This document shows positions 3,069-32,764 of a stretch of DNA of 36,704 nt, piece by piece (the first letter of the stretch is position 1; every line of letters begins with the position of its first letter). The DNA lies in NCBI GenBank assembly GCA_965371285.1, contig CBDUXU010000002.1:1-36704 (forward strand), in the 5' to 3' direction. Made by a program: the position numbers and the translations under genes. The notes beneath the pieces were generated by a model. It was not told where the DNA came from. It saw only the letters and a program-made list of their open reading frames with translations, and did no database searches. This DNA comes from an uncultured bacterium. Its GTDB lineage: Bacteria > Desulfobacterota > GWC2-55-46 > DRQE01.

Positions 3069-3812
3069 CTTAGACCCCCCGGTAAAATTAAAAGTTAGAC
3101 TACTAATTATCAAAAAATCCCAAGATGTCAGACTAGTACTTTAAAACGCCCCTCCCCGAGCTTACAATGAGCTTTCAAGTTTTACTACTTCTGACTGTCT
3201 ACGACAGTTTACGTCAGATAGTTCCAAGTACTTCACAGCGTCATTAAAAATATGATGCCACCTGAAATTCCCGCGGTGGAACCGCAAGATTTTTTGACCC
3301 TCTATCACACTAATGTTAATTCCAGCAACTTGCTTATCTAAACTTAAATCTTTTGTTCTTTCTTCTTAAGACAACTCTCTACAGACTGCAATTTTCGATA
3401 ACCACTTTGAGCTAGATGTCAGTACATTTCTTACCCTAATGGGCAGTTTCTTTAGTTAGGTTCCAATTGTTATAAATTTCAAGATTTAATTTAAACACAT
3501 AATTAAAAATCGGTCAAGGCTAAATAAATCATTTAAAAACAAATACTTACAGCATCTCTATGGTTACAATAGGAGCCTGGAATTGTCACAAAGTGAGGTT
3601 TAAATTTAAAGACCGGATAACAAAACCTACCCTCTAAAGCTAATCTTTCTATTTAAGCAAATTATTCGCTTTTTAAAAATAGGGAATTATACCTATATGT
3701 GCAGAACCTGTTATTTTAATAAGATAAAGCTTTATGGTGTATAACGATAGAAAGTGTGAGAGTGGAATTGATTTATAACTTTACCTGAATTTAGTCAACA
3801 AACATAACTTAA

Positions 3813-6149: not shown

Positions 6150-9098
6150 ATGAGAACGGAAAAACGAACCCAGGAGATTGCCGAAGAACTCTTTGAGATG
6201 GTAAGCGGCCAGGTGCCGAGCTTTTTTAACCCGCGGCGCTGGAAGGGTCGTCTTATGGAGTGGTCCATGAAGGACGAATCCTTCAAAGTCCAGCTCTTTC
6301 GCTTCGTTGACCTAATCCCTACAGTAAAGTCCGACAAGGAACTCCTGAAAGTATTTACCGAGTATTTTTACTACGGTGGTAAGGACCTTCTTCCATCACC
6401 AATAAAGAGACTTATACCGCAGAGGGGAGTTCAGGCAACAATTGCCGCAAAGATAATAAAGGCAAATGTTAAAAGCCTGGCTAAACAGTTCATTGCAGGG
6501 AGTACGCCAGAGCAGGCAGCAGCGGAACTTAAAAAACTACGGAGTTCCAAAAAAGCTTTTACAGTGGACCTTTTGGGAGAAGCTGTCCTTAGCCTTGGGG
6601 AAGCCTCTTTATATGAGACTCGCTACATGGATATGATTAACACCCTCGGCAACCTTATAGAAAATTTTGATGAGGACCAACTTCTTGACAGAGAGCCGGG
6701 CGGGGCTATTCCAAGAGGAGATTTATCCCTCAAGGTTTCGTCCTTCTATCCCCGCATTAACCCCATGGACTTCAGGGGTTCAATTGAAGGCATAAAAAAA
6801 CCTCTCACAAAAATAATCAAAAGTGCCTGCGCAAACGACCTCTCCCTCACCTTTGACATGGAACACTACCAACTTAAAAACCTGACCTTAGAGGCATTTA
6901 AGAATATAGTAGAATCAATCCCCGAATTCGACTTCCCTGGCATAGCGCTCCAGTCTTACCTGAGGGACAGCGAAAAAGATTTAAGGTCGCTCATTGCATG
7001 GGCAAAGGAGAGGAGAAGAAAAATTTCAGTAAGGCTTGTTAAAGGCGCCTACTGGGACTATGAGAAAATAGTCAACACTCAGAACTTTTCCAAACTGCCC
7101 GTGTTTAAAAGTAAAGCCGAAACGGACAGAAATTTTGAAAAACTTACAAGGATTCTTCTTGAAAACGCGGAATATGTAAGGCCTGCCATTGCAAGCCACA
7201 ACATAAGGAGCATTGCCCACGCCATGGCAGTTATGGAAGAGCTTGGCCTAAAGAAAACTGCCGCCGAGTTCCAGGCACTCTACGGCATGGCAGAGCCCAT
7301 CAAAAACGCAGTCACCGTACTGGACTACCGACTTAGAGAGTATGTACCGGTGGGCGAATTCTTGCCCGGCATGGCATATCTTGTAAGACGCCTTCTTGAA
7401 AATACTTCCAATGAATCGTTTCTACGCCAGTCTTTTGTAGATAAGACAAAAATCCAAAACCTCATTACACTGCCTCCTGAAAAAAAAGAAAAGGACGATA
7501 TTGATATAATGATGAAAGAAAAATTTTCTAACACACCCCTTACAGACTTTTCCCTTGAGAAAGAGAGGGAGAGTTTTTTAAGCAGCATAAATAAAGCAAA
7601 AGAGAAGTTTAAAAACCCCGCAACCTTCCCTCTCCTAATTGGCGGCAAAGAAATAATGAGCCAAAAAACCTTTACATCCACTGACCCGGCGCAGCCCCAA
7701 AGGATTATCGGAATAATGTCTGAAGGGTCGGCAGACGACGCCCGAGCTGCAATTACTCACGCCGAAAGCGCCGGCAAAAAATGGGCAGCAGTCCATTATG
7801 ATGACAGGGCAGAAATACTTTTTAAAGCTGCCGAGTATCTTACCGGTATAAGACAAGAGGTAGCTGCAACAGAAGTATTTGAAGTGGGCAAGAGTTGGGC
7901 AGAGGCAGACGGCGATGTGGCAGAGGCAATAGACTTTCTAAACTTCTACGGCAGCGAGATAAAACGCCTTGGTCCGCCGCGCCGCCTTGGCACTCTTCCG
8001 GGAGAACTTAACTATTCAAGCTATATCCCCAGGGGGGTGGTAGCAGTGATTGCCCCCTGGAACTTTCCCCTGGCAATAAGCTGCGGCATGACGGCGGCGG
8101 CCTTAGCCGCGGGCAACAGTGTCATGTTAAAACCGTCGAGCCTCTCCCCGGTGACAGCCTACTACATAACCGACGCATTCCGCGAGGCAGGACTCCCCCC
8201 GGGAGTACTACAACTTATTACGGGGCCGGGAGGGACAGTTGGAAAAGCCCTGGTAGAGAGTAGCCTTACAGACGCAGTGGCATTTACCGGTTCAATGGAA
8301 GTTGGGCTTGGAATAATAAGGTCCGCCGGAGCGGTTGAGGTAGGTCAAAAGAATGTTAAAAAAGTCATAGCCGAGATGGGAGGCAAAAACGCAATCATCG
8401 TTGACGGCACGGCAGACATGGATGAAGCAATAAAGGGAGTGGTCAGTTCTTTTCTGGGGTATCAGGGACAGAAATGCTCTGCCTGCTCAAGGCTAATTTT
8501 AACGGGAGAGGATGAATATAAAAACGAGTTCTTAAAGCGCCTTTCCGAGGCAGTTGCGAGCCTTACAATGGGTCACCCATCAGAGCCGGGAAATATCATA
8601 GGCCCCATAATAGACGAGGGGGCCCTTAAAAAAATAAAAAACTACATCGAGATTGGTAAAAAGGAAGCGACACTCCATTATGAATTCAGTCCTGTTACAA
8701 AAGACGGCAATTTCGTAGGCCCGGTAATCTTTAAAGATGTAACCCCGGAGATGTCTATAGCAAAAGAGGAAATTTTTGGCCCAGTTCTCTCTGTCATGGA
8801 AGCCTCGGATATTGACGAGGCAATAGAGATTGCAAACAGGGCGACCTTTGCCCTGACCGGGGGCATCTATTCAAGAAGCCCTGCCAATATTGATAAAGTA
8901 AGGGAAGGCCTGGAGGCGGGAAATGTTTATATAAACAGGAAAATCACAGGGGCTCTGGTCTACCGCCAGCCCTTTGGGGGGTTCAAGATGTCAGGCGTCG
9001 GTACAAAGGCCGGCGGCCGGGACTATCTCCAGCACTTTATGTTTCCCCGGGTAGTCACAGAGAACACCATTAGAAGGGGGTTCGCTCCGGAGGAGTAA
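6150..9098 (+). CDS. putA: Bifunctional proline dehydrogenase / L-glutamate-gamma-semialdehyde (P5C) dehydrogenase, short PutA form without an N-terminal DNA-binding domain
   Basis: 982-aa ORF. The N-terminal half has proline-dehydrogenase barrel motifs (VRLVKGAYWDYE, ASHNIRS, YGMAEP, YVPVG...GMAYLVRRLLENTSNESF). The C-terminal half is an aldehyde dehydrogenase (VIAPWNFPLAI, EMGGKNA, GQKCSACSR catalytic Cys, EEIFGPVL, PFGGFKMSG). AAGGAG lies 13 nt upstream of the ATG. Confidence 0.95.
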   Translation: MRTEKRTQEIAEELFEMVSGQVPSFFNPRRWKGRLMEWSMKDESFKVQLFRFVDLIPTVKSDKELLKVFTEYFYYGGKDLLPSPIKRLIPQRGVQATIAAKIIKANVKSLAKQFIAGSTPEQAAAELKKLRSSKKAFTVDLLGEAVLSLGEASLYETRYMDMINTLGNLIENFDEDQLLDREPGGAIPRGDLSLKVSSFYPRINPMDFRGSIEGIKKPLTKIIKSACANDLSLTFDMEHYQLKNLTLEAFKNIVESIPEFDFPGIALQSYLRDSEKDLRSLIAWAKERRRKISVRLVKGAYWDYEKIVNTQNFSKLPVFKSKAETDRNFEKLTRILLENAEYVRPAIASHNIRSIAHAMAVMEELGLKKTAAEFQALYGMAEPIKNAVTVLDYRLREYVPVGEFLPGMAYLVRRLLENTSNESFLRQSFVDKTKIQNLITLPPEKKEKDDIDIMMKEKFSNTPLTDFSLEKERESFLSSINKAKEKFKNPATFPLLIGGKEIMSQKTFTSTDPAQPQRIIGIMSEGSADDARAAITHAESAGKKWAAVHYDDRAEILFKAAEYLTGIRQEVAATEVFEVGKSWAEADGDVAEAIDFLNFYGSEIKRLGPPRRLGTLPGELNYSSYIPRGVVAVIAPWNFPLAISCGMTAAALAAGNSVMLKPSSLSPVTAYYITDAFREAGLPPGVLQLITGPGGTVGKALVESSLTDAVAFTGSMEVGLGIIRSAGAVEVGQKNVKKVIAEMGGKNAIIVDGTADMDEAIKGVVSSFLGYQGQKCSACSRLILTGEDEYKNEFLKRLSEAVASLTMGHPSEPGNIIGPIIDEGALKKIKNYIEIGKKEATLHYEFSPVTKDGNFVGPVIFKDVTPEMSIAKEEIFGPVLSVMEASDIDEAIEIANRATFALTGGIYSRSPANIDKVREGLEAGNVYINRKITGALVYRQPFGGFKMSGVGTKAGGRDYLQHFMFPRVVTENTIRRGFAPEE

Positions 9099-9114
9099 CC
9101 TCCCCCCTTACCCA

Positions 9115-9906
9115 TTACCTAACCTTTAGTACCAAACACTTTGCGCTTCCCCCGGCCTTGATGAACTCGCTAAAGTCAAGCGTGTGGATGGTAAGACCCT
9201 TATCTTCAAGGGTCGTTTTTAATTCATCAGTGCAGCGGTTCATTACAATATCCCTGCCCAGAGCTAATGCGTTGCAGCAGAAGTTTTTGGCGTCCTCCTC
9301 ACCTACTTCGATAAGCTCAGGGACGAGCCCTGCCAAAGCTCTCTTGCCGTAGTCGTCAAAGGCGCCGGGAAAGTATAGGGCACTATTATCATCCAAAGGG
9401 CAGAAACAGGTATCGAGGTGATAGAAGTCCGGGGAGGCAAGCTCCAGAGAGATAACTTCTTTTTTTAATATCTCTCCTATTTTGTTATGGGACTTTATGT
9501 CGGTGCGATATTTAAAACCTGCAACCAAAGTGCCTCCAAACATAAGGGCGTCTCCCTCACCTTCGAAGTGGCAGTCTTCGGGCAGTTTGATAATCTCATA
9601 CCCAGCGTCCCTGAACCACTTTTCGAAATAAGGCGCTTCTTTTTGCCTTTGTTCAAACCGGAAGTTACTTAGTATAAAACTATTTTCGAATACAAGCCCT
9701 CCGTTTGCCGTAAAGACCATATCGGGAAGTCCCTCTACCTGTTCTATATACTCGATGGTAACATCAAGACTCTTTAAAAGATTGTTAAAGTCGTCCCACT
9801 GGTCAAGGGCCTTCTTAGGGTCCGGCTGAACCTCCAGGTGCATCCAGGGGTTTATCTCATAACTTACTGCGTAGTACTGCGGGCGGCAAAGGAGGAGTTT
9901 GGTCAT
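9115..9906 (-). CDS. Amidinotransferase-superfamily guanidino-group-modifying enzyme, arginine dihydrolase (ArgZ/AgrE N-domain)-like or DDAH-like
   Basis: 263-aa ORF. PDMVFTANG, FEGEGDAL, FYHLDTCFCPL (His) and C-terminal GGSAKCLVLKV (nucleophilic Cys) fit the pentein/amidinotransferase fold. The start overlaps the upstream stop in ATGA (9903-9906). Confidence 0.7.
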   Translation of the reverse strand: MTKLLLCRPQYYAVSYEINPWMHLEVQPDPKKALDQWDDFNNLLKSLDVTIEYIEQVEGLPDMVFTANGGLVFENSFILSNFRFEQRQKEAPYFEKWFRDAGYEIIKLPEDCHFEGEGDALMFGGTLVAGFKYRTDIKSHNKIGEILKKEVISLELASPDFYHLDTCFCPLDDNSALYFPGAFDDYGKRALAGLVPELIEVGEEDAKNFCCNALALGRDIVMNRCTDELKTTLEDKGLTIHTLDFSEFIKAGGSAKCLVLKVR

Positions 9907-11186
9907 GATAGCTTACTGGATAGTTTACTCGATAGTTGACTTGATAGTTCTTTAAGGAAGGTGCCTGCGTCCATGACAAGGCCAGTTGCCTGCCCGGTGC
10001 CCCGGTCAGAGAGCTTAGTGATGGCCGAGGGGTCTATATCAACACAGACTGTGCGTACACTTGCGCCAAGCATATTACCCACGGCAATGGAATGGAGCAT
10101 GGTGGAAATCATTACCACCATAGTTACCCCCTTTAGCTTTTCCCTCATAACATCCTGGGCAATGAGTACATCGGTAATAACTTCCGGCAAGGGACCATCA
10201 TCTCTTATGGACCCTGCAAGGACAAAATCCACACCGTTTTTTATACAGCTAAACATGATGCCGTCCTTTATTACTCCACTCTCGACTGCCGCCTTTATTC
10301 CCCCTGCATCCCTTATGGTATTGATAACACGGATGTGGTGGTTATGACCCTCATGTGTATAGTCGCCTTCTTTAAGTGAAACCCCCAGTGAAGTCCCATA
10401 AATGGCAACCTCCATGTCGTGAACTGCCAGTGCGTTTCCCGCAAAGAGGAGGTCAACATAACCTCCCTCTATAAGGCCGGCGAGATAATCCCTTCCCCCT
10501 GTGTGGACTATGGCAGGGCCGCATACAAAAAGTATCTGACCCTGATTTCGGCCTCCGCCTTGGCCCTGGCCTGAATCTTTTATTTCTTTTATCTCCTCTG
10601 CGATGGCAGCAATCAGCGGACCAGTCGGTTTTTCGCTTGAGACGCCGCTTGACATAAAACGGAAATCACAGTCCCGCCTTTTTTCCGGGAGCAGTACCCT
10701 CACCCCTGCCGAGCCCACAGCAATCACATCCCCCTTTTTTACGTCCTTCATCTTTAAGGTCCGTGACACGCCAGCTCCGCCCTCAACGAGAATACCCGAG
10801 TCCATAGAGGTGCCTGTTACACTTACCCAGTTTCCTTTATGAAATATTTCGGTTTCGAGATTGGTGGTAGAATAAAAACCGCCTGGAAAGACCCCGTCCT
10901 TTGTTGCGACTTGAAGGAGAACTTCCTTTTTCCCTACCGCCGCTGCCCCAAGCTCTCCAATGCGCGTAAGTATACTGTCCAGGGTTTTCCGGTCAGTGGC
11001 GGTTACTTTAAGTTTTGCAAAACTGGGGTCATCTTTTGTCCTGCCTATGTCGATTTCTTCCGTAAGGTAGGTGCCGCCGCGGGCCATTATCTCGTCATAG
11101 ACCTTGGATAGGATAAGAGAATCTATAATGTGCCCTCTTAGCTCTACTATTTCCCAAACTTCCTTCATATTCATATAAGATACCAC
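9903..11186 (-). CDS. TIGR00300 / LOR-SDH conserved-region family protein (archaeal-type ornithine cyclodeaminase-like, equivalent to the AgrE/ArgZ C-terminal domain)
   Basis: 427-aa ORF. The N-terminus ELRGHIIDSLILSKVYDEIMARGG...IDIGRTKDDPSFAKLKV matches my recollection of this family, and a Rossmann-like GPAIVHTGG segment is present. The start is ambiguous: GTG at 11186 or in-frame ATGs at 11174 and 11168. Confidence 0.65.
   Translation of the reverse strand: MVSYMNMKEVWEIVELRGHIIDSLILSKVYDEIMARGGTYLTEEIDIGRTKDDPSFAKLKVTATDRKTLDSILTRIGELGAAAVGKKEVLLQVATKDGVFPGGFYSTTNLETEIFHKGNWVSVTGTSMDSGILVEGGAGVSRTLKMKDVKKGDVIAVGSAGVRVLLPEKRRDCDFRFMSSGVSSEKPTGPLIAAIAEEIKEIKDSGQGQGGGRNQGQILFVCGPAIVHTGGRDYLAGLIEGGYVDLLFAGNALAVHDMEVAIYGTSLGVSLKEGDYTHEGHNHHIRVINTIRDAGGIKAAVESGVIKDGIMFSCIKNGVDFVLAGSIRDDGPLPEVITDVLIAQDVMREKLKGVTMVVMISTMLHSIAVGNMLGASVRTVCVDIDPSAITKLSDRGTGQATGLVMDAGTFLKELSSQLSSKLSSKLS
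9907..9950. repeat. 3.7 copies of a 12-bp tandem repeat inside the 3' end of the cyclodeaminase-like gene
   Basis: GATAGCTTACTG / GATAGTTTACTC / GATAGTTGACTT / GATAGTTC. On the minus strand it encodes the C-terminal tail LSSQLSSKLSSKLS. Confidence 0.8.
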
Positions 11187-23181: not shown

Positions 23182-23931
23182 ATGATAACTTCAAATCCAA
23201 AACACATATTATTAGCCGACGACTCCATGTTAATCAGGGCCCGCCTTGGCAATATGCTCGAAGAAGCAGGCCACCATGTCACCATAGCCGTTGACGGGGC
23301 AGCCGTCATTGACACCTTAAATGGCGGAAACATAAACTTTGACTTAATAATACTGGACATGAATATGGAACACATAAACGGCTTTGCAGTGCTGGAGTGG
23401 ATGAATGTTAATGGTTATATGCCCGGCATTCCGGTTCTCTGCATGACAGACTTCTCCAACCTTAACAAAGTGTCATGGAAGGCCTCGGAGATGGGGTCCA
23501 GCGGAACACTCATAAAAGGACTCACACCGGGGCAAACCATAGAAGCGGTAAACAAAGTACTCTTTCAGGAAACAGTTTCCTCCAGAACTGAGGAAAGAAT
23601 CCATACTTCTATACCGGCAATTTTTGAGATAGGCTCCGCAGGTCACGAAGGTACACTTCTTAATATTAGCAGAGGCGGGGTGTTTCTCAAGACTGATGTC
23701 AGGCTTTTTATCGGCTCCACCTTATCCCTTAAGTTTACTATCCCTGGGTTTGAAGACTCTCCCCTAACCCCCAAAGGCAAAGTTAACTGGCTTACCCCGG
23801 CAGAGAAAAAAAACGACTTCTTCACAGGGGCAGGAGTTAAGTTTAAGGTAATTACCGAGAGAAACAAAACTACCATAAACGAATTCCTGTCTAAACACGA
23901 AGACAAAGAAGAACAAGAGAAACAAGCCTAA
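23182..23931 (+). CDS. Response-regulator receiver fused to a PilZ c-di-GMP-binding domain (paralogue 1)
   Basis: 249-aa ORF. REC: ILLADDS, LIILDMNMEHINGF, VLCMTD, TLIKG. PilZ: RTEER (RxxxR) and NISRGGVF (D/NxSxxG). Confidence 0.85.
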   Translation: MITSNPKHILLADDSMLIRARLGNMLEEAGHHVTIAVDGAAVIDTLNGGNINFDLIILDMNMEHINGFAVLEWMNVNGYMPGIPVLCMTDFSNLNKVSWKASEMGSSGTLIKGLTPGQTIEAVNKVLFQETVSSRTEERIHTSIPAIFEIGSAGHEGTLLNISRGGVFLKTDVRLFIGSTLSLKFTIPGFEDSPLTPKGKVNWLTPAEKKNDFFTGAGVKFKVITERNKTTINEFLSKHEDKEEQEKQA

Positions 23932-24089: not shown

Positions 24090-24118
24090 TTGACCGCCCC
24101 TGATTGGTGGATTATAAT
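24090..24118 (+). promoter_or_regulatory. Sigma70-type promoter upstream of the second REC-PilZ gene
   Basis: TTGACC (24090-24095), 17-nt spacer, TATAAT (24113-24118). AAAGAGG lies 7 nt upstream of the ATG at 24169. Confidence 0.55.
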
Positions 24119-24168: not shown

Positions 24169-24876
24169 ATGATTACAAAGAACAAAAAAACAATTCTTAT
24201 TGCAGACAGTAGCATGCTTGGAAGATCCAGACTGGTAAGCATTTGTGAAGACGGTGGTCACAGGGTTATTACAGCCGATAATGGTCGAGAGCTTGCAGGG
24301 CATATTAAAAACAAACAAAGCATAGACCTGCTCCTTATGGATATGCACCTTGATAAAGTAGACGGGCTAAGAATGCTGGAATGGATAAATCTAAATTTAA
24401 GTAGAAGCTTTCCTATCCTATGCGTGGCATCAATGAACGAACATGATTCTTTATTGTGGAAAGTAAGGGACTTGGGGGCAGTGGGCCTTATATCTAAAAA
24501 CATGCCTGGCGAGGTGATATTAGAAAACATAAATGCTGCTCTCTTTAGCCATACTCAAAAAACCAGGCACAAAAAAAGAAAATTCACAACCATACCTGCA
24601 ACATTCAACCTGGGCATGCGTGATCATGGCGCTAGTATTCTCAACATAAGTCCCGGAGGTTTATTCTTGCACACCAACATGAACCTCCTTACCGGTTCAA
24701 AAGTAAAAGTTGACTTCACCCTCCCTGATAAAGAAAGAACACATATACAGGCTACAGGAACAATTAAATGGGCTACACCAAGGAATAAAAAAGAATCTGC
24801 ATTTTCGGGAGTTGGAATAATGTTTAATTCTGGCAGCGAGTCACCTGGACCCGGGCTGGCAGGTTTCCTGCCATAA
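24169..24876 (+). CDS. Response-regulator receiver fused to a PilZ c-di-GMP-binding domain (paralogue 2)
   Basis: 235-aa ORF. REC: ILIADSS, LLLMDMHLDKVDGL, ILCVAS, GLISKN. PilZ: RHKKR (RxxxR) and NISPGGLF. The N-terminus MITKNKKTILIAD parallels paralogue 1 (MITSNPKHILLAD). Confidence 0.85.
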   Translation: MITKNKKTILIADSSMLGRSRLVSICEDGGHRVITADNGRELAGHIKNKQSIDLLLMDMHLDKVDGLRMLEWINLNLSRSFPILCVASMNEHDSLLWKVRDLGAVGLISKNMPGEVILENINAALFSHTQKTRHKKRKFTTIPATFNLGMRDHGASILNISPGGLFLHTNMNLLTGSKVKVDFTLPDKERTHIQATGTIKWATPRNKKESAFSGVGIMFNSGSESPGPGLAGFLP

Positions 24877-24903
24877 ACAAACCACTCTCTTTTGGGAGGG
24901 AGT

Positions 24904-26160
24904 ATGTTTACCGGAGAACATACTCCCTCTGCCTCCCAAACCCCCTTCATATATGCTACACTTACAGCCATGAAACCTGTCTCCAGCCCCTATAAATTAG
25001 CCATATATTTTACTGCTTCGGCAATAATAACCATATTAGTTATTCCCATGCTTTATATAACCTTTGCCGATGGCGACAATATTCGTAACAATGAATGTGT
25101 CGTACTCCTTCACGGTTTAAACCGCTCCAACAAATCCATGTACCTCATGGAAAAATATTTAATTAAACAAGGCTACAAAACAGTTAATTATAATTACGAT
25201 TCCACAAACAAATCTATTCAGGAAATAGCCTCCGGCGATGTTAAAGCGGCAGTGTCGAGCTGCAAAAAAACCAAAACAAAGAAAATTCATTTTGTCACAC
25301 ACTCGCTGGGAGGAATAGTTGTTCGCCGGTACCTACAGGATAACAGCCTCCCTAAGGGAAGCCGTCTGGTCATGCTTGGACCGCCAAACAAAGGCAGCGA
25401 ACTCTCCGACTATTTCTCGGACCTAGAGCTCTTTAAATGGCTAAACGGAGATGCGGGAGTCGCCTTAACAACGGATAAAAAAAGCATTCCCAACTCACTA
25501 AACACAATTTCTAAAAACCTCATTGAGATTGGTGTTATTGCAGGGGATGTCAGTTTTAACCCCTTTTTCTCATACATAATTGGGGGCAGTGATGACGGGA
25601 AGGTTTCCGTTGAGAGTACCAGACTCTCTGAGATGACCGACTTTATTGTTATGACAACGAGCCATACTTTTATGATGAACAACCCTTTTGTAATGGAGCA
25701 GGTAAAAACCTTCCTGGAAAATGGTAAATTCAAACATAATGAAAACTCCATAGAAGAGGTAACGGAGAGCCTGGAGACCTTCAAAAGCGACGGGTGCAGC
25801 TTGTTCCCCAACGGCAACTTTATGAGCGCCTCTAAATCAGAACAAAACCTGTGGTGTGGCTGCTGCTTTCGCCACGACATGAGTTACTGGCAAGGAGGCT
25901 CGAGTGACCAGAGGCTTGCTGCTGACAATGAGTTCAAAAAGTGTATATTAGAAACCACCGGAAGCGAGGAACTTGCATCGCTTATGTTCAACGGGGTTCG
26001 CGGCGGAGGGTCGTCATTATACCCTACATGGTATCGCTGGGGTTACGGATGGCCTTACGGAAGAGGCGATAAGGAACTCACTAGACTGGAAAGAGAAGCG
26101 GTTTCCGGAAGACTTCTTGAGTATTACCAAAAAGACACACCTTATATATGCGGGGAGTAA
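24904..26160 (+). CDS. Membrane-anchored alpha/beta-hydrolase (lipase/esterase) fused to a C-terminal Cys-rich phospholipase-A2-like domain
   Basis: The ORF track starts at TTG 24892. ATG 24904 is preferred because GGGAGGG lies just upstream. TM helix LAIYFTASAIITILVIPMLYI, then VVLLHGLN and nucleophile elbow THSLGG (Ser codon 25303-25305). The C-terminal region has WCGCCFRHDMSYWQGG (nt 25861-25878 encode CCFRHD), resembling the PLA2 CCxxHD / HDxxY catalytic motif. Confidence 0.65.
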   Translation: MFTGEHTPSASQTPFIYATLTAMKPVSSPYKLAIYFTASAIITILVIPMLYITFADGDNIRNNECVVLLHGLNRSNKSMYLMEKYLIKQGYKTVNYNYDSTNKSIQEIASGDVKAAVSSCKKTKTKKIHFVTHSLGGIVVRRYLQDNSLPKGSRLVMLGPPNKGSELSDYFSDLELFKWLNGDAGVALTTDKKSIPNSLNTISKNLIEIGVIAGDVSFNPFFSYIIGGSDDGKVSVESTRLSEMTDFIVMTTSHTFMMNNPFVMEQVKTFLENGKFKHNENSIEEVTESLETFKSDGCSLFPNGNFMSASKSEQNLWCGCCFRHDMSYWQGGSSDQRLAADNEFKKCILETTGSEELASLMFNGVRGGGSSLYPTWYRWGYGWPYGRGDKELTRLEREAVSGRLLEYYQKDTPYICGE

Positions 26161-26168
26161 TATTTTAA

Positions 26169-27665
26169 ATGAACCTTAGAGAATCTAATTGGCATAACGC
26201 AGCAGGCGCGTCCTTTGACGCAGTTATTATAGGGGGAGGAATTAACGGAGCCTCTATATACAAACAACTATGCGATGAAGGCTACAAAGTGCTGCTCATT
26301 GACAAAGGAGATTTTAGCTCAGGTACGAGTCAGTCTTCTGGCATGATGATTTGGGGAGGACTCCTCTACCTAAAAGATTTTCATTTTTCTACAGTATATC
26401 GGTTATGCAGGGATCGAAGTAGAATACTGGAACTATACAAAAACGAAGTATCTCCAAAACAATTCAGGTACATACTTTCAAAAAAATACGGCCACAATAA
26501 ATTTTTAGTAGCACTAGCTGTTTATCTTTACTGGTTTATTGGACTGGTAAAGACCAAAAGGCCCCAGTTTCAAAATCACTTCAAAGAAACAGATTTTTTA
26601 AAAACAGACGATATTAAAACCTCTCTCATAATGGAAGAAGGGTTTCTGGCAGATTCGGACTCTAGGTTCGTACTGGACTGGATTCTGTCTAACCAAAACA
26701 AATATGCTATCGCTATGAACTACTGCTCTACAAATAAAGGTCAATACAGTAAAAAAGACAAAGAATGGACACTTGAATTAAAAGACCATTTTAAAAACAG
26801 AAACTGTACTATAAAGTCTAAGATTGTAATAAACTGCGCAGGTGTTTGGACAGACCAAGTCAATAAGGAATTCAATATTGAAGCTACACACAAACATGTC
26901 TTTAGTAAAGGTGTCTTTGTAGCTTTTCAAAGGCCTAAAAACCTTCATGACCCGTTAACATTTGACCTTGGAATAAATGACGATACAATTACACTAATTC
27001 CATGGGGATCTGTTGCGCTCTGGGGACCTACGGAAAACATGGTAGAGTCAATCGAAGAGGGTTTCAGTCCAAATTCTGATGACATAAACTTCCTCCTGCA
27101 CCACGCAAGCAAACACTTAAAGGACTCAATTACTAACTCTCCTATAGTTTCTCTGCGCTGCGGTATAAGGCCTCTTGCCGTAAAAAAATCATTTAACGAA
27201 ACTCCCTACCCCCTTAAACTATCAAGGGCTTTTAAGATTGACTCTAATAAAGACCGCCCATGGATATCAGTTTATGGTGGAAAAATAAGCGGCTGTCTCT
27301 CCATGGCAGAACAAGTAACAAAAATTGTTTTAAAAAAAATAACTCCTACAGGGCATATAACCGGTAATAATAATATCTTCACCTCTGACCATGACAGGAC
27401 CACTTTCCCGGGGCTAAGTAGTGCAATTCCAACAGTTAAATGGTCTGTAGATAATGAATTCTGCTGCACTCTCGATGACTACCTGAGGAGGAGAACAAAC
27501 ATTGCGCAGCAAATACCACGAGAAGGGTTGGGGCAAAATGACGAAAATCTTGAAATCATTAAGGCCATGGCAAAAGATATGCCAGACTACCAGGGCCGGA
27601 GTGACAGCTTAATCAATGATTATGTGGAAAAAGTAAAAAACAACTTTGACAAACTAACCGGTTAA
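26169..27665 (+). CDS. FAD-dependent oxidoreductase of the glycerol-3-phosphate dehydrogenase/oxidase (GlpD/DAO) family
   Basis: 498-aa ORF. N-terminal dinucleotide fold FDAVIIGGGINGASIY...LLIDKGDFSSGTSQSSGMM. INCAGVW, GGKISGCLSMAE and LDDYLRRRT resemble GlpD landmarks. Starts 8 nt after the upstream stop. Confidence 0.7.
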   Translation: MNLRESNWHNAAGASFDAVIIGGGINGASIYKQLCDEGYKVLLIDKGDFSSGTSQSSGMMIWGGLLYLKDFHFSTVYRLCRDRSRILELYKNEVSPKQFRYILSKKYGHNKFLVALAVYLYWFIGLVKTKRPQFQNHFKETDFLKTDDIKTSLIMEEGFLADSDSRFVLDWILSNQNKYAIAMNYCSTNKGQYSKKDKEWTLELKDHFKNRNCTIKSKIVINCAGVWTDQVNKEFNIEATHKHVFSKGVFVAFQRPKNLHDPLTFDLGINDDTITLIPWGSVALWGPTENMVESIEEGFSPNSDDINFLLHHASKHLKDSITNSPIVSLRCGIRPLAVKKSFNETPYPLKLSRAFKIDSNKDRPWISVYGGKISGCLSMAEQVTKIVLKKITPTGHITGNNNIFTSDHDRTTFPGLSSAIPTVKWSVDNEFCCTLDDYLRRRTNIAQQIPREGLGQNDENLEIIKAMAKDMPDYQGRSDSLINDYVEKVKNNFDKLTG

Positions 27666-27686
27666 GTAAATAATATTATCTAACAG

Positions 27687-28976
27687 ATGAAAAAGACAAA
27701 CTCCAACATACCTGCCATACTTGGCGGACCCAAATCAGTCACCCTTGAACACGGTGACATCAATAAATGGCCTATTCTTACCGGCAGGGACGAAGAAGCT
27801 GTGCTAAGTGTAATTCGCGGCGGTAATATTTCCACTCACCCTATTATAAGAGAACTGGAAAATGATTATGCCAGGCTTACAGACAGGCCGTATGCACTAT
27901 CACACAACAACGGGACTTCAGCGCTGCTCGCTGCATTTTATAGTATAGGTTTAAAACCAGGCGACGAGGTCCTTGTTCCTTCTGCAACTTTTTGGGCATC
28001 GGTCCTTCCTATGTTATGGGTTGGAGCAATCCCTGTTTTTTGTGAAAGCGAAAACGAGCGGCTGGGCATTGACCCAATTGACATGGAGAAAAAAATAACC
28101 GACAGAACCCGCGCCATTGTTGTAGTGCACCTTTGGGGTTTGCCCTGCAAAATGACTGAAATAACCAGACTGGCAAAAAAACACGGCCTGAAAATTATAG
28201 AAGACGCCTCGCATGCCCATGGGGCGACCTGGAGAGACAAAAAATGCGGTTCTCTTGGCGACATATCGGTATTTAGCCTCCAAGGCGACAAGCTTGCACC
28301 ATCAGGTGAAGGTGGTATGCTCCTATGCAATGAATACGAGTATTTCGAAAAAGCTGTTTCTATGGGAGATATTACGCGGATAATAGAGCTGGAAACCCCG
28401 GCCAGGAGGTTTGCTGCAACAAGTTTTGGCATAAAAACCAGGATGTCACCACTGTCAGCTGCAATAGGAAAGAACCAATTAAAAAACCTGGAGGAACATA
28501 ATAAAGTAAGGAATAAAAACCTTACATACCTCTCAGAAGGCCTTGAAGAGCTTGGCTTTAAAACTTTCCTTCCGCCTAAACACATAAAAAGAGTATATTT
28601 TGAATATTTAATTGAATTTAATGAGGCCGGTTCAGGACTATCACCAGCACTACCGCCAGCACTGCCAATAGATAAACTAATAAAAGCTCTGGAGAAAGAA
28701 GGGGTCCTGGTAGAACGACCACGATACCCGCTACTTCACCAGCAGCCTTTTTTCACCGAAGGGGCTTTTAAAGATATCCTTCGCCTCCCGGAAGGAACAC
28801 CTCTACCTGATTATAATAAATGTTCTCTGCCAATAACTGAAGCCAGTAACAATAAGCTGCTAAAACTTCCTTCGTTCCCGGGCAGGGATAATGGCATCAT
28901 AGACCAGTATTTAAGAGCGTTTAAAAAAGTTATCAACCACTTAGAAGAAATTGAAGACCTGAAAATAGATGACTAA
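27687..28976 (+). CDS. DegT/DnrJ/EryC1/StrS-family PLP-dependent aminotransferase
   Basis: 429-aa ORF. HNNGTSALL, DEVLVPSATFWAS, IIEDASHAHG and VFSLQGDKLAPSGEGGML (PLP lysine in the SxxxxKxxxxGEGG pattern). Confidence 0.85.
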   Translation: MKKTNSNIPAILGGPKSVTLEHGDINKWPILTGRDEEAVLSVIRGGNISTHPIIRELENDYARLTDRPYALSHNNGTSALLAAFYSIGLKPGDEVLVPSATFWASVLPMLWVGAIPVFCESENERLGIDPIDMEKKITDRTRAIVVVHLWGLPCKMTEITRLAKKHGLKIIEDASHAHGATWRDKKCGSLGDISVFSLQGDKLAPSGEGGMLLCNEYEYFEKAVSMGDITRIIELETPARRFAATSFGIKTRMSPLSAAIGKNQLKNLEEHNKVRNKNLTYLSEGLEELGFKTFLPPKHIKRVYFEYLIEFNEAGSGLSPALPPALPIDKLIKALEKEGVLVERPRYPLLHQQPFFTEGAFKDILRLPEGTPLPDYNKCSLPITEASNNKLLKLPSFPGRDNGIIDQYLRAFKKVINHLEEIEDLKIDD

Positions 28977-29343
28977 TAAAAACACTAAATACAGCTTATT
29001 ACTACGATTTGCCAATGTGTTGTTTCATATAACACACCTAACGACTATTTCATTTTTTTTGTTTGCATGGCTTTTTGAAGAAACAAGGGCTGCTCATTAT
29101 ATACTTTCAATATTAATACTACTCTCCTGGCATCTACTAAACTGCTGCCTCATAACTGAAATACAGTGGCGAATAAAAGGGCTTTTAGGCGAGAGGCCCC
29201 CTCATGATCAGTATGTAAAATATCTGCTTGATAAAATAACTCGGCGCGACTTAAATCCCGATGCAACTGATAAACTAACTAAATATACTTATTATATAAT
29301 TCTAGTAATTGCTACAATACTGCTGATTGACAAAAAGTTCTAA
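28969..29343 (+). CDS. Small integral membrane protein of unknown function (possibly DUF2784-like)
   Basis: 124-aa ORF overlapping the aminotransferase stop by 8 nt. Three hydrophobic helices. The CCLITEIQWRIKG segment resembles the CPLT..E motif I associate with DUF2784, which is a weak recollection. Confidence 0.5.
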   Translation: MTNKNTKYSLLLRFANVLFHITHLTTISFFLFAWLFEETRAAHYILSILILLSWHLLNCCLITEIQWRIKGLLGERPPHDQYVKYLLDKITRRDLNPDATDKLTKYTYYIILVIATILLIDKKF

Positions 29344-29353
29344 ATTGAGGATC

Positions 29354-32300
29354 CTACTTGCGACCGGTAACCTCTTTAGCCAGTTTTTGAATACCCTTTA
29401 AGTCCAGCTTGCCTGAGCCAAGGAGGGGAAACTCCTCTACTTCATAAAATTCTTTTGGTATCCAAAGGCTGCTTATACCTTCGGCTTTTAGTTTTTCACT
29501 TACACTGCCCCTATCCATCAGACCACTTACCTCTGGCAGGTACAGAACAACAAGTTTTTCACCCTTTGCCTCATCCACCGCTGAAGAAACTACCATCATC
29601 TGGGAGTCCAGTTTAAATACCTTATGGAGGACCTCTTCTATCTGTATGTGGGGAACCATCTCTCCTGCTATCTTTGAGAAACGGCTGAGGCGGCCTACAA
29701 TATAAATAAACCCCTCATCATCAATCCTGCCTATATCCCCCGTAACATAATAACCATTATGGGTAGCCTCTTCGGTCCTCAGACTGTCGTTTAAATAACC
29801 TTCCATCCTGCTTGCGCCGCTAACAAGCAGCATTCCATCTTCATTGCTGGAGAGTTCTTTATCATAATTCTCCGGGTTTACTACCTTAACTGACACTCCC
29901 GGCAGCGGCAGACCCACGCTGCCTTCTTTTGTGCCTTTTTGGCTCACCCCCTTTTCATTATAGTTTGGAATATTACAAGACACTATAGGGCTCATCTCCG
30001 TCGCGCCGTAACCTTCTACAATAGAAACAGAGAACTTTTCATAAAAAGCCTCTGATACATTTGCCCTAAGTTTTTCTGCCCCTGCCACGGCAAGCCTTAA
30101 ATGACTAAACTGGTCGGTTGTACATTTTCTTGCATAAAGACTATAAAATGTCGGAGTGCCTAACATTAAAGTCGCCTTGTATTTGCCTGCCATCTCACCC
30201 ACTACCTTGGCGTCCAGTGGGTCGGGAACATAAACCGTGAACACGCCCTTAAGCATACTCAGCCACAGAGTAATCGTATAACCAAAAGAATGAAAAAGCG
30301 GGAGGGATCCGATAAGGGTGTCTTTATTATTAAACTGGACAATTTCATTTGCCATCTCTAAGTTACTCATAATGTTGTTATGAGTAAGAACAATTCCCTT
30401 CGGGTCACCGGTAGATCCGCTTGAGAATATAACAGTTGCCATATCCCCGCTTAAGTGGGTACTTTTATTGTAAAGGTAATCAATCACCACCGATGGCAAT
30501 ACTATGACAGCAAGAGTTGTAACTATTTTAGGTAATAACCCAATACTTTTTGCCATGTCTTCCAGATAAACAAAACAGTCCCTTTTTTCAAGCCCCAGCT
30601 TTTTTATAAAAAGCTTGGAAGTTATGATTCTTTCTATATTACATTTTTCTATATATTTCGTTATGGCATCTTCCCCTGCAGTGAAGTTTAAGTTAACCGC
30701 CACCCTGCCCGAAAGTGATACGGCAATATTTATAATTACTGCGGCAGATGACGAGGGAAGTATAATTCCTACCATTTCGTCCTTATCACCTTTAGATGAT
30801 ATAAGTTTTGACATAAGGATTGATGATGTCAGGAGTTTGAAATATTTAATAGGTTTGCCTGTAATGTCGGCAGCTGCATTATGGAATTTAAAATGTTTTG
30901 CAGTCCTTATAAAACTGGAGGCAAGGGTTTTGTAATCCTCCGTTCTCCTGTGAAAGGCCTTTGAGCCTAGCTCCAATACCTTTTGCCTAAGTGTAAAGGC
31001 AGTGGTATTTTTATCTACAGGGTCGCCAAAAAATAAAACTACTGGATAGGGAACTCTCTCGGGAATTTTTTTAAAAAACTTAGACCATTTAAAAGAGAAG
31101 ATACTACCCCAAAGTTTGTCCATATAAACAGGGATTATTACAGTCTCATCAGGCGCCTTCCTTAAAATAAGTTCAACACCCCTTTTGAAGGGAAGGAGGA
31201 ATCCAATTCTGGTAATACTCCCCTCCGGAAATATACATATAACATCACCGTTACCTAAAGCCTCGGCAGTCTTGTCTATGGCGTCTTTTGCCCTGGTCTC
31301 AGAGATGGGGATACACCCTGCCATCCTGAGGATCCAGCCAATAAGGGGTTTATCAAAATAACTCTCATAAACCACAAAACGCACCTTCCTGTGAGGTACG
31401 CCAAATTGAAGCACCAACCCGTCTACAAAACTAAGATGATTGGGAGTAAGTAGGACTGGTCCGCTATCAGGTATTTTGTCTACTCCAACAGTGTCAATTT
31501 TGTAAACAGTATTTGTCAGTACTCCCAAAATGAGCCTGAAAAATGCCTCAGGCAGGAGCCTGAAAACAAAAACCGTAACAACAAGGCTTATAGACCCCAA
31601 TATCAATAAAGTATCGCCGGGAGTAAGTTTCATAATACCTGTGAAAAAACCTAAGGCAGCGGCAGCAACAATCATTCCTACATTTTCAAACATCGTAGAT
31701 ATTGCAATGAACCTGCCCCTTTTTTCATCATCACTTTCCAGCTGCAAAAGAGTATTAAGAGGCACCATAAACATTCCTCCAAACATTCCAATTAAAAAAA
31801 TATCACCTACAGCCAACCAATAATTATCTGCCAGTGTGGGAAGCAGAAAAGAGGTAACACACATGCCCAGAGACCCTACAGGAATGAAACCTGTTTCCAC
31901 CCTATAAATGGAAAGTTTTGCTACAATCAGAGAACCCATAGCAACACCGATACTTAAATAAACAAAGAGAAAGGCCGCGGAAGAGATTTTATCCATTCCC
32001 ATTTCATTTGTGCCAAAAAGCAGCAGCGCCAAATATAAAAAGCTTGCAGCAAACCAAAAATAACTGTTGCCTATGACAGTCAACCTTAAAATGCGGTTGT
32101 CAAAAACCTCACCTACATTGGCAAAAAACTCTTTCATGGTAAAAACATTTTCTGACTTCCCCGAGAGCGGCTCCAGCCTGAATGTAAAAACAAAACCTAT
32201 AAGGCTGAAGATTACAAGTATTGCCACAGGTATAATTACAGAAAGTCCTTCGCCTCCCTCTGTGAACTTTTCAAATAAAAACGGCCCTGCTACAGTGCCT

Positions 32301-32764
32301 CCTATAATTGCCAGCACGGTACCCATGCTAATAATCCCGTTAGCCTGGCCAAGCCTCCTCTCTTCTACAATTTCTTTTAGTACGCCAAGCTTTGCAGGGC
32401 CATAAAAGGCGCTTTGAATTCCCATAAGAGCCAGCAGCACCATTAAAACATTCCATGAACCAATGTATATGCCCCACATTGCACAGGCCAGTATTAAAAA
32501 CTCCGTAGCTTTAAAAATGAGGAGTACTTTTCTTTTTGAATGCCTGTCAGAGTACCAACCGGCAAGAGGGCCAAGAAAAACAAAGGGAAGAAGAAACAAT
32601 ATGGTAAAAGCAGAATTATATTGCCCGTGAACCTCTTTAGGCAGAGAGATATAAACAAGGGAGATAAGTATCATCTTCAGGGCATTGTCATTGAATGCTC
32701 CTGTGGCCTGGGACACGAATAATCCAAAAAAGGAATTATTTTTGAAGAGGTCTTTTATTTTCAT
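29354..32764 (-). CDS. Triple fusion: MFS lysophospholipid transporter (LplT-like) + PlsC-type acyltransferase + acyl-ACP/acyl-CoA synthetase (Aas-like)
   Basis: 1136-aa ORF. About 12 TM helices in the N-terminal ~400 aa, with YSDRHSKRKV as an MFS loop. HX4D acyltransferase motif PNHLSFVDG plus FPEGSITR. AMP-binding motifs VIFSSGSTGDPKGIVLTHNN, YGATE, TGDIGRIDDEGF and GKLDLK. Confidence 0.85.
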   Translation of the reverse strand: MKIKDLFKNNSFFGLFVSQATGAFNDNALKMILISLVYISLPKEVHGQYNSAFTILFLLPFVFLGPLAGWYSDRHSKRKVLLIFKATEFLILACAMWGIYIGSWNVLMVLLALMGIQSAFYGPAKLGVLKEIVEERRLGQANGIISMGTVLAIIGGTVAGPFLFEKFTEGGEGLSVIIPVAILVIFSLIGFVFTFRLEPLSGKSENVFTMKEFFANVGEVFDNRILRLTVIGNSYFWFAASFLYLALLLFGTNEMGMDKISSAAFLFVYLSIGVAMGSLIVAKLSIYRVETGFIPVGSLGMCVTSFLLPTLADNYWLAVGDIFLIGMFGGMFMVPLNTLLQLESDDEKRGRFIAISTMFENVGMIVAAAALGFFTGIMKLTPGDTLLILGSISLVVTVFVFRLLPEAFFRLILGVLTNTVYKIDTVGVDKIPDSGPVLLTPNHLSFVDGLVLQFGVPHRKVRFVVYESYFDKPLIGWILRMAGCIPISETRAKDAIDKTAEALGNGDVICIFPEGSITRIGFLLPFKRGVELILRKAPDETVIIPVYMDKLWGSIFSFKWSKFFKKIPERVPYPVVLFFGDPVDKNTTAFTLRQKVLELGSKAFHRRTEDYKTLASSFIRTAKHFKFHNAAADITGKPIKYFKLLTSSILMSKLISSKGDKDEMVGIILPSSSAAVIINIAVSLSGRVAVNLNFTAGEDAITKYIEKCNIERIITSKLFIKKLGLEKRDCFVYLEDMAKSIGLLPKIVTTLAVIVLPSVVIDYLYNKSTHLSGDMATVIFSSGSTGDPKGIVLTHNNIMSNLEMANEIVQFNNKDTLIGSLPLFHSFGYTITLWLSMLKGVFTVYVPDPLDAKVVGEMAGKYKATLMLGTPTFYSLYARKCTTDQFSHLRLAVAGAEKLRANVSEAFYEKFSVSIVEGYGATEMSPIVSCNIPNYNEKGVSQKGTKEGSVGLPLPGVSVKVVNPENYDKELSSNEDGMLLVSGASRMEGYLNDSLRTEEATHNGYYVTGDIGRIDDEGFIYIVGRLSRFSKIAGEMVPHIQIEEVLHKVFKLDSQMMVVSSAVDEAKGEKLVVLYLPEVSGLMDRGSVSEKLKAEGISSLWIPKEFYEVEEFPLLGSGKLDLKGIQKLAKEVTGRK

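Follow-up and report, generated by a model that had tools for sequence, protein, structure and literature searches.

A scattered three-gene cassette of a divergent GlpD-family flavoenzyme, a DegT-family aminotransferase and a DUF2784 membrane protein as a candidate alcohol-to-amine module

The flavoenzyme-DegT-DUF2784 cassette

The stretch of DNA analysed here, 36,704 nucleotides (nt) from an uncultured bacterium of the Desulfobacterota and hereafter called the window, contains five co-directional genes: for a response regulator with REC and PilZ domains (REC-PilZ), an alpha/beta hydrolase fused to a phospholipase A2 (PLA2)-like domain, a divergent GlpD-family oxidoreductase dependent on flavin adenine dinucleotide (FAD; hereafter the flavoenzyme), a DegT-family aminotransferase dependent on pyridoxal phosphate (PLP), and a small DUF2784 membrane protein. 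The run converges on a gene for an LplT-PlsC-Aas fusion (Table 1). The original prediction, made from the letters of the DNA, had joined all six genes, speculatively, into one candidate system for remodelling lipids or head groups. Its open reading frames (ORFs), its intergenic gaps of 27, 8, 21 and -8 nt along the run (the start of the DUF2784 gene and the end of the DegT gene share 8 nt) and its spacing of 10 nt between the convergent stop codons of the DUF2784 and LplT-PlsC-Aas genes are as claimed by coordinates and sequence, and its domain calls for the six proteins were right according to Pfam and NCBIfam, the PLA2-like domain, which Pfam does not match, apart. From comparison of gene content, the conserved unit is smaller, namely a horizontally scattered three-gene cassette (26169-29343) composed of the flavoenzyme, DegT and DUF2784 genes. 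These genes appear to be translationally coupled and, in one case, fused.

Loci for comparison came from two collections. A flavoenzyme search in one genome per species gave four loci. In metagenome contigs, an alignment of 20 orthologues as query led to 286 pattern matches; 222 of these were confirmed, giving 80 loci. ORFs were called by script in all loci and matched to the window's proteins by phmmer; grouped at a flavoenzyme identity of 90%, the 85 loci gave 69 groups. Pairs were counted among the 54 non-redundant representatives with 400 nt or more of sequence after the flavoenzyme gene. A DegT orthologue lies next to the flavoenzyme gene, downstream and on the same strand, in 51 of these 54, and gaps between the two genes are listed within -37 to +31 nt for 39 of the 54. 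Such adjacency is far beyond chance. At two of the exceptions, a short-chain dehydrogenase (SDR; adh_short) gene occupies the position of DegT (L050:9091-10299 and L052:1222-2361), and at the third, L073, the flavoenzyme gene is truncated. In the SDR variant, oxidation could be followed by reduction, with possible stereo-inversion of an alcohol.

The two enzymes also occur as a natural fusion. In a protein of 987 residues (P0121) encoded on a 3.9-Mb contig, DegT is N-terminal and the flavoenzyme C-terminal; this order reverses the usual order of the genes, and the fusion is therefore not a simple read-through. Another apparent fusion, the 913-residue P0122, was rejected as a frame-garbled gene call. 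In a sample of 401 genomes of the phylum, orthologues of the flavoenzyme (E ≤ 1e-60) and of DegT (E ≤ 1e-70) turned up in the same pair of genomes (G000 and G189), where they are adjacent; the flavoenzyme is absent from all 40 nearest relatives of the window's genome. In G189 (L122, G189:C19), the only other genome of the sample with the cassette, the order is a major facilitator superfamily (MFS) gene, flavoenzyme, DegT, DUF2784, and the flavoenzyme gene (2776-4232, minus strand) carries a frameshift near the conserved P-W-G-P-V-S-L-W-G-P, reflecting either a pseudogene or an assembly error. In one further group (L016:9530-10800 and L017), DegT is in three frame-shifted pieces, as is the flavoenzyme of L017 in two; the translations show frameshifts and no in-frame stop codons, and the breaks are likely indel errors of assembly. 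Pairwise distances of the flavoenzyme and of DegT correlate over 40 loci (r = 0.86; none of 999 permutations was as high), which fits inheritance as a unit, and DegT has diverged less than its partner (mean p-distance 0.37 for DegT and 0.55 for the flavoenzyme). The proposal that FAD oxidoreductase and aminotransferase form a functional pair is thus upheld by their adjacency, by the fusion P0121 and by their joint presence in the same genomes.

The third cassette gene encodes a DUF2784 protein (PF10861; 37.2 bits against a gathering score of 29.7). It follows DegT in 23 of the 37 representatives with room for it as scored by script, and in 24 of 37 when L016 is added by eye, both counts being lower bounds obtained with the window's own, atypical copy as query. 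In this copy, seven residues (the G-x-F-x-G-x-G-Y stretch) ahead of C-x-x-T-D/E-x-x-W are deleted that are present in all 26 other aligned copies. At L037 the DUF2784 gene is located 1.6 kb further downstream. H23, S53, W54, C60 and W67 are invariant. An AlphaFold2 (AF2) model, with a mean predicted local distance difference test (pLDDT) score of 89.4, has long helices at residues 4-35, 37-57 and 97-123 plus two short ones, and a fold search with it gave no match better than E 2.5. No fused forms of DUF2784 were found, a weak piece of evidence, and the literature on this family that we located consists of papers on the pncA region of Mycobacterium tuberculosis, none of them on function. In a sub-clade devoid of DUF2784 (L025, L031, L035 and L042; e.g., L035:4877-5164), a DUF6868 protein with two hydrophobic helices is encoded directly upstream of the flavoenzyme, at a distance of 3 nt in L025. 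Several sulfatase genes and a GNAT (Acetyltransf_6) gene in convergent orientation are nearby.

The flavoenzyme and the aminotransferase

The flavoenzyme consists of a DAO FAD-binding domain (PF01266, 82 bits) and a GlpO-type C-terminal domain, the latter with a weak match to DAO_C (PF16901; 23.9 bits against a cut-off of 31.4). Its best solved relatives are GlpD/GlpO enzymes (3da1, 1e-48; 2qcu, 8e-46; down to 5e-42 within 3da1/2qcu/2rgh). The alignment with 3da1 and 2qcu spans residues 3-394, and in a search with the family profile GlpD/GlpO structures (3da1, 2qcu, 2rgh/2rgo) are the only full-length relatives; glycine oxidase and sarcosine oxidase come up as distant matches aligned over the N-terminal FAD-binding stretch only. 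Scores against the NCBIfam GlpD equivalogs NF008899 and NF009906 are 146.6 (cut-off 360) and 140.6 bits (cut-off 352), respectively. The HGGLRYL motif of GlpD reads WGGLLYL in the window, W62 and L66 replacing H50 and R54 of Escherichia coli GlpD, which we take to be the proposed base and a phosphate ligand. This W...L form is found in 81 of the 82 orthologues that cover the motif, SDR-linked ones included, and a W...P form in the other. The alignment also reveals G-x-R-P-L, an S-R arginine and G-G-K to be common to the flavoenzyme and E. coli GlpD; these are presumably the substrate- and phosphate-binding residues R317, R332 and K354 of GlpD.

In the window's genome (1.82 Mb, 98% complete) neither another GlpD-like gene nor a glycerol kinase was detected, so that a catabolic GlpK-GlpD route is unlikely there, judging by gene content. 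The sub-cut-off score, the replaced His and Arg and the failure to find a glycerol kinase thus set the flavoenzyme apart from ordinary respiratory GlpD. A large protein collection holds 1025 homologues (clusters) at E ≤ 1e-10. Those with the best 120 scores, all above 478 bits, are 42-55% identical to the query and bear generic names only; the named members among them are metagenome-assembled genomes (MAGs) of Desulfobulbaceae, Nitrospirae, Lentisphaeria, Thermodesulfobacteriota, Nitrospinota, Methylomirabilis and Verrucomicrobia. Some homologues carry the annotation 'glycerol-3-phosphate dehydrogenase'.

The aminotransferase belongs to DegT_DnrJ_EryC1 (255 bits against a gathering score of 19.8), and its orthologues across related loci are 50-72% identical. 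The PLP lysine, K202, does not vary among 22 orthologues, and the lysine of perosamine synthetase (3bn1) stands at the same alignment position. None of the named NCBIfam aminotransferase equivalogs (PseC, LegC, ArnB, DesI, WecE) reaches its cut-off, the best being PseC with 176.4 against 423.5 bits. Closest to it among solved proteins are perosamine synthetase, a DegT entry without a name (8gyh), for which a literature search found no paper, and 2-deoxy-scyllo-inosose aminotransferases (BtrR). NtdA is detectable at 91 bits, and the family thus includes enzymes for nucleotide-free substrates.

The neighbourhood of the cassette

How far does the system extend beyond its core? The hydrolase fusion and REC-PilZ accompany the pair only here and at L013, where they stand in the same order, and they are lineage-specific neighbours outside the conserved core. 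The LplT-PlsC-Aas fusion scores 1244.1 bits against PRK08633 (cut-off 1221), with MFS_1, Acyltransferase and AMP-binding domains all present, and adjoins the cassette in this window only; it is encoded in none of 16 genomes of the same family and in 9 of 24 other genomes of the same order. Lipase, pair and Aas are each missing from the 16 same-family genomes. A five-gene operon with Aas as a conserved system therefore finds no support, and from the earlier expectation of co-conservation across genomes what stands is the three-gene core, whereas the lipase fusion, REC-PilZ and Aas are not generally conserved. The layout of five genes plus Aas is particular to this lineage, and the whole segment is patchy.

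Features of the local layout are collected in Table 1. The two REC-PilZ paralogues are in tandem, and the 237-nt spacer between them holds the best promoter-like site; a second site with 11 of 12 matching positions (27646-27674) lies just ahead of DegT. The same scan detected no intrinsic-terminator-like site within the 10 nt between the convergent genes. No Rfam match and no tRNA gene were found in the window. The longest ORF of the hydrolase opens at a TTG (24892); the ATG at 24904 is most likely the start, given the GGGAGG ribosome-binding site that precedes it.

Table 1. Genes and sites in and around the five-gene run of the window.
Feature	Position	Strand	Remarks
REC-PilZ paralogue 2	23182-23931	+	Response_reg 62 bits, PilZ 50 bits
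Sigma-70-like promoter match	24090-24118	+	11/12 hexamer positions, consensus match alone; best upstream of the five-gene run
REC-PilZ response regulator	24169-24876	+	First gene of the co-directional run; Response_reg 54 bits, PilZ 40.6 bits
Membrane-anchored alpha/beta hydrolase (esterase/lipase type) with Cys-rich PLA2-like C-terminal domain	24904-26160	+	Weak Pfam matches
Divergent GlpD-family FAD oxidoreductase	26169-27665	+	498 aa; core gene 1; Pfam DAO
DegT/DnrJ/EryC1 PLP aminotransferase	27687-28976	+	429 aa; core gene 2; PF01041
DUF2784 small membrane protein	28969-29343	+	124 aa; core gene 3; PF10861
LplT-PlsC-Aas fusion	29354-32764	-	1136 aa; NCBIfam PRK08633; lysophospholipid transporter, acyltransferase and acyl-ACP synthetase in one protein

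The hydrolase domain of the fusion, preceded by a single N-terminal hydrophobic helix (residues 29-47), has weak Pfam matches to DUF676, Palm_thioest and Lipase_2. Alone it is widespread (543 representatives at E ≤ 1e-30), and among the best 150 of these the full fusion with the PLA2-like domain recurs only in P0123 and P0125. P0124 (489 residues) holds the hydrolase domain as a tandem duplicate, without the PLA2-like domain. Homologues of the C-terminal domain (about residues 285-418) are found in 20 of the 401 phylum-sample genomes, mostly as stand-alone ORFs of 130-290 residues; open frames in G158 (535 residues) and G089 (401 residues) are long enough for the fused form. No lipase fusion was found among the 40 relatives, where G038 alone encodes the C-terminal domain, as a stand-alone protein. 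In G038 (L088, G038:C169; 102-1466 and 1453-2007) this protein has a lipoprotein-like N-terminus, and its gene is convergent with a patatin-like phospholipase gene.

Is this domain a PLA2? It has no Pfam match up to E = 10. Twenty homologous sequences share a CC-x-x-H-D-x-x-Y-W-x-G-G motif, in which Cys, His-Asp, Tyr and Gly-Gly, together with an Arg and an Asp, are invariant (C37, H40, D41 and Y44 in domain numbering), thus displaying the His-Asp dyad of secreted PLA2. Phospholip_A2_3 is found in 26% of the members of the nearest ESM Atlas cluster (score 0.91). With a moderate-quality AF2 model (pLDDT 64.7), Foldseek ranked the bacterial PLA2 8k1w first, as a weak match (E 0.62, probability 0.94, 26% identity), and in a wide VIA search the fungal PLA2 4aup_B tied for first, again weakly (Z 5.0, root-mean-square deviation 4.2 over 75 residues, 23% identity). 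The label PLA2-like thus seems reasonable but putative, with moderate support from the motif, the ESM Atlas cluster and the weak fold matches. Group XIV secreted PLA2 (8k1w, 4aup; PF09056) likewise has a His-Asp dyad in a Cys-rich helical domain; the window's domain differs in its fusion to an alpha/beta hydrolase and in its lack of a Pfam PLA2 match.

The PilZ domain of the first gene of the run exceeds its cut-off of 22.5 bits, and its translation contains R-x-x-x-R and N-x-S-x-x-G, which we take to conform to the receptor motifs of PilZ for cyclic di-GMP (c-di-GMP), R-x-x-x-R and (D/N)-x-S-x-x-G. PilZ or GGDEF genes lie near the cassette also at L014 and L037, thin support for a link to c-di-GMP; control by c-di-GMP, as proposed originally, is speculative, and so is the serinol- or amide-lipid product.

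Neighbours of the cassette were surveyed with up to three flanking ORFs per side, covering 183 ORFs in 58 of the 69 groups. Most are unrelated housekeeping or mobile genes. Lipid genes of varied kinds flank the cassette in about 12 of the 58 groups. PlsC-type acyltransferases occur in three independent groups, immediately upstream at L018 (194 bits to the Aas-type PRK08633) and at the SDR-variant locus L050, and at L016 behind an MFS gene downstream of DUF2784. Two groups (L008/9/10 and L014) have a gene for a phospholipase D (PLD)-like protein upstream, and two (L039, and L040/43/86) have one for a DedA/VTT-rhodanese protein divergently upstream; there are also a GDSL PlaA-like lysophospholipase gene downstream at L063/64, alpha/beta hydrolase genes upstream at L083 and L056, and a fatty-acid desaturase gene at L047. 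The MFS neighbours at L016 and in G189 gave no specific LplT match and were not counted as LplT. Other neighbours, some of which point away from lipids, include S-adenosylmethionine-dependent methyltransferases (L009, L012, L044), GNAT (Acetyltransf_6) genes convergent with the cassette (L020, L025, L028, L031, L033, L035, L038) and genes for nicotinamide adenine dinucleotide (NAD)-dependent epimerases/dehydratases (L053, L059); no glycosyltransferase or polysaccharide-export gene recurs beside the cassette in the loci examined. The lipid theme of the original prediction is thus retained in part, in that varied lipid genes recur and the third conserved gene encodes a membrane protein, whereas adjacency to lipase and Aas is not general.

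Elsewhere in the window, Pfam identified DabA and a PII-like gene. A PutA-type proline/aldehyde dehydrogenase gene adjoins genes for DDAH/ADI-like and ArgZ-like arginine dihydrolases (6150-11186); these may form an arginine/proline catabolic cluster unrelated to the cassette.

Possible activity of the cassette and its relation to known systems

What might the cassette do? The reading that we favour, tentatively as a whole, is that of an alcohol-to-ketone-to-amine module acting on a glycerol-phosphate-type substrate. Its parts deserve different degrees of trust: we consider it likely that the cassette oxidises and then aminates, regard the chances of a glycerol-phosphate-type substrate as about even, and think it possible, though against the balance of probability, that a lipid serves as substrate, namely a substituted glycerophosphate on the membrane's cytoplasmic face such as lysophosphatidic acid (LPA), a 2-lyso-phospholipid or a glycerol head group. 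We envision that the GlpD-like flavoenzyme would convert a hydroxyl on the carbon beside a CH2-O-phosphate, within a glycerol-phosphate-type moiety, into a ketone, as its family and its retained phosphate-site residues suggest. DegT would then turn the ketone into an amine, giving a 2-amino-2-deoxyglycerol-phosphate (serinol-phosphate-type) group, a step suggested by the obligate pairing of the genes, by the fusion of both enzymes in one protein and by the exchange of DegT for an SDR. The DUF2784 protein might serve as partner of both enzymes at the membrane. At the variant loci the SDR would reduce the ketone, and its presence in place of DegT fits a ketone product that is passed to a second enzyme. 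Since dihydroxyacetone phosphate (DHAP) is present in every cell, an obligatory private oxidase argues for a ketone other than DHAP, and a pocket that has lost one His and one Arg points to a substrate of lower charge or greater bulk, which is probably not free glycerol-3-phosphate for respiration. A membrane-located, substituted glycerophosphate would fit the third gene and the recurring lipid neighbours. Neither the flavoenzyme nor DegT has a signal peptide in predicted topology.

Several observations weigh against this interpretation or blunt its evidence. About a third of the loci with room for DUF2784 are without it, and no lipid gene is seen in about 46 of the 58 groups whose neighbours are visible. 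The excess of PlsC-type genes (three groups against about 0.2 expected in 183 neighbours, given two PF01553 genes in the 1.82 Mb of the window's genome; Poisson P ~1e-3) is a post hoc comparison with crude ORF calls and a single-genome background. A mirror-tree correlation is also expected of any two genes with a common genome history. The closest solved DegT relatives, perosamine synthetase and BtrR, use nucleotide sugars or cyclitols, the retained phosphate-site residues are equally compatible with free glycerol-3-phosphate, and at L007 a gene for an IMPase/HisN-type phosphatase lies 20 nt upstream of the cassette, hinting at a soluble amino-alcohol phosphate.

The last two of these points lead to the alternative of a soluble pathway, in which the flavoenzyme would oxidise free glycerol-3-phosphate to DHAP and DegT would aminate the latter to serinol phosphate, for use as a head group, in glycan decoration or, once dephosphorylated, in N-acyl serinols. 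Transaminases that convert DHAP to serinol phosphate are described in the available parts of two reports (PMC11800397, PMC3222319), the GlpD-family architecture is retained along with G-x-R-P-L, S-R and G-G-K, and the PLD-superfamily genes upstream in two groups could attach an amino alcohol to lipid. We nevertheless consider this pathway unlikely, as DHAP is a central metabolite for which a dedicated, near-invariably coupled oxidase is unneeded, the His and Arg of HGGLRYL are replaced almost throughout the orthologues, and the GlpD score is far under its cut-off. Conceivably, the pair might instead aminate another soluble phospho-polyol or a nucleotide-linked alcohol for envelope glycans (glycerophosphodiesters, CDP-glycerol/CDP-ribitol, erythritol or ribitol phosphate, a UDP-sugar), as an FAD-dependent counterpart of GnnA/GnnB or NtdC/NtdA. 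In keeping with such a role, most of the DegT relatives found in the PDB are aminotransferases for nucleotide sugars or sugar phosphates, NtdA among them; the epimerase/dehydratase genes of two loci and the convergent GNAT genes of seven would also agree with it. That no glycosyltransferase or export gene recurs, that no NCBIfam sugar-aminotransferase equivalog is reached and that, to our knowledge, no GlpD fold acts on nucleotide sugars makes it rather unlikely all the same.

Two further explanations concern the flavoenzyme itself. It might be an amine oxidase or dehydrogenase, so that the pair would deaminate and re-aminate an amino compound, inverting its stereochemistry or degrading it. 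The presumed position of the catalytic His (H50 in GlpD) is W62, a Trp in all 82 orthologues that could be scored, and glycine and sarcosine oxidases of the DAO superfamily are among the distant matches; yet those enzymes match the FAD-binding stretch only, whereas similarity to GlpD/GlpO is full-length, and alcohol-ketone-alcohol or alcohol-ketone-amine logic accommodates the SDR variant at least as well, so that we rate this as very unlikely. That an ordinary respiratory GlpD came to lie by chance beside an unrelated sugar aminotransferase is scarcely credible: the 'glycerol-3-phosphate dehydrogenase' annotation of some homologues would agree with it, but the adjacency at 51 of 54 loci, the fusion protein, the co-occurrence in the same 2 of 401 genomes, the GlpD score below the equivalog cut-off and the failure to find a glycerol kinase in the genome all speak against it.

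If the oxidise-then-aminate reading on a glycerol-phosphate-type substrate is adopted, the arrangement in the window invites a local circuit, which is conjecture throughout. The hydrolase fusion, being anchored and Cys-rich, is probably exported, and might generate lysolipids outside the cell; LplT would import them, the flavoenzyme and DegT would oxidise and aminate them inside, and the PlsC and Aas domains would acylate the products. The placement of lipase and Aas is specific to this lineage and may represent a local recruitment outside the conserved system. A long shot, which we judge improbable, is an undescribed membrane lipid, made by oxidation of the sn-2 hydroxyl of LPA or a 2-lyso-phospholipid, amination by DegT and N-acylation by a PlsC/Aas-type acyltransferase. 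If this were true, the resulting glycerophospholipids would bear an amide-linked chain, withstand both phospholipase A2 and alkali, and lie chemically midway towards ceramides. Horizontal transfer would have carried the trait across seven or more bacterial lineages from sediments and soils, and in this genome it would be tied in with a secreted lipase/PLA2 and with c-di-GMP signalling.

The cassette is scattered over MAGs of Desulfobulbaceae, Nitrospirae, Nitrospinota, Methylomirabilis, Verrucomicrobia, Lentisphaeria and Gammaproteobacteria; no cultured organism was among the named members that we saw, and we know of no member that has been studied so far. Identifying its product, which could be a new amino-glycerol metabolite or membrane lipid, would tell what DUF2784 does, along with the many proteins now mis-annotated as 'glycerol-3-phosphate dehydrogenase', and would bear on environmental lipid biomarkers and on the resistance of membranes to phospholipases.

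How does the cassette compare with systems already described? Pairs of an oxidase and an aminotransferase are the route by which cells place amino groups on sugars and lipid A. GnnA and GnnB oxidise UDP-N-acetylglucosamine at position 3 and transaminate it, allowing amide-linked acyl chains in lipid A, and GnnA is an NAD-dependent enzyme of the Gfo/Idh/MocA family. The cassette shares with them the order of an oxidoreductase followed by a DegT-family aminotransferase, and hence a secondary alcohol turned into an amine that can be N-acylated; it differs in that its oxidase is FAD-dependent and belongs to the DAO/GlpD rather than the Gfo/Idh/MocA family, and in being unlinked to lipid A genes in the loci examined. 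In the kanosamine pathway of NtdC, NtdA and NtdB, which has no membrane protein, NtdC is NAD-dependent and uses glucose-6-phosphate. Common to both is a dehydrogenase with a DegT-like aminotransferase on a nucleotide-free, phosphorylated substrate and a phosphatase, of which L007 is reminiscent. To GlpD/GlpO the flavoenzyme is linked by its DAO FAD domain, its GlpO-type C-terminal domain and the G-x-R-P-L, S-R and G-G-K residues, and from them it is set apart by WGGLLYL, by its sub-cut-off score, by its coupling to an aminotransferase or, rarely, an SDR, and by its patchy occurrence (2 of 401 genomes). The LplT/Aas retrieval system, which O-acylates lysophospholipids, is represented by the convergent gene of the window, which passes the PRK08633 cut-off, and by the Aas-type PlsC of L018, but stands beside the cassette in this window only; N-acylation of an amino-lysolipid by LplT-PlsC-Aas is conjecture.

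Closest in reaction are Cj1437 of the Campylobacter jejuni capsule and RtxA's N-terminal domain in rhizobitoxine synthesis, which, according to the available parts of the reports, transaminate DHAP to serinol phosphate (PMC11800397, PMC3222319). It is the step to be expected once a GlpD-type enzyme has oxidised glycerol-3-phosphate; their DHAP comes from central metabolism, with no partner oxidase. A paper on N-acyl serinols concerns, in its available part, a nas gene unrelated to the cassette (PMC13012048). A literature search for DUF2784, serinol phosphate, aminopentanetetrol and amide-linked serinol phospholipid, whose coverage left out most subscription journals and supplements, returned no description of the cassette and nothing on the biosynthesis of aminopentanetetrol. 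The logic of oxidising and then aminating is thus shared with known systems, and it is the family of the oxidase, the DUF2784 partner and the probable substrate that set the cassette apart from GnnA/GnnB, NtdC/NtdA and Cj1437/RtxA.

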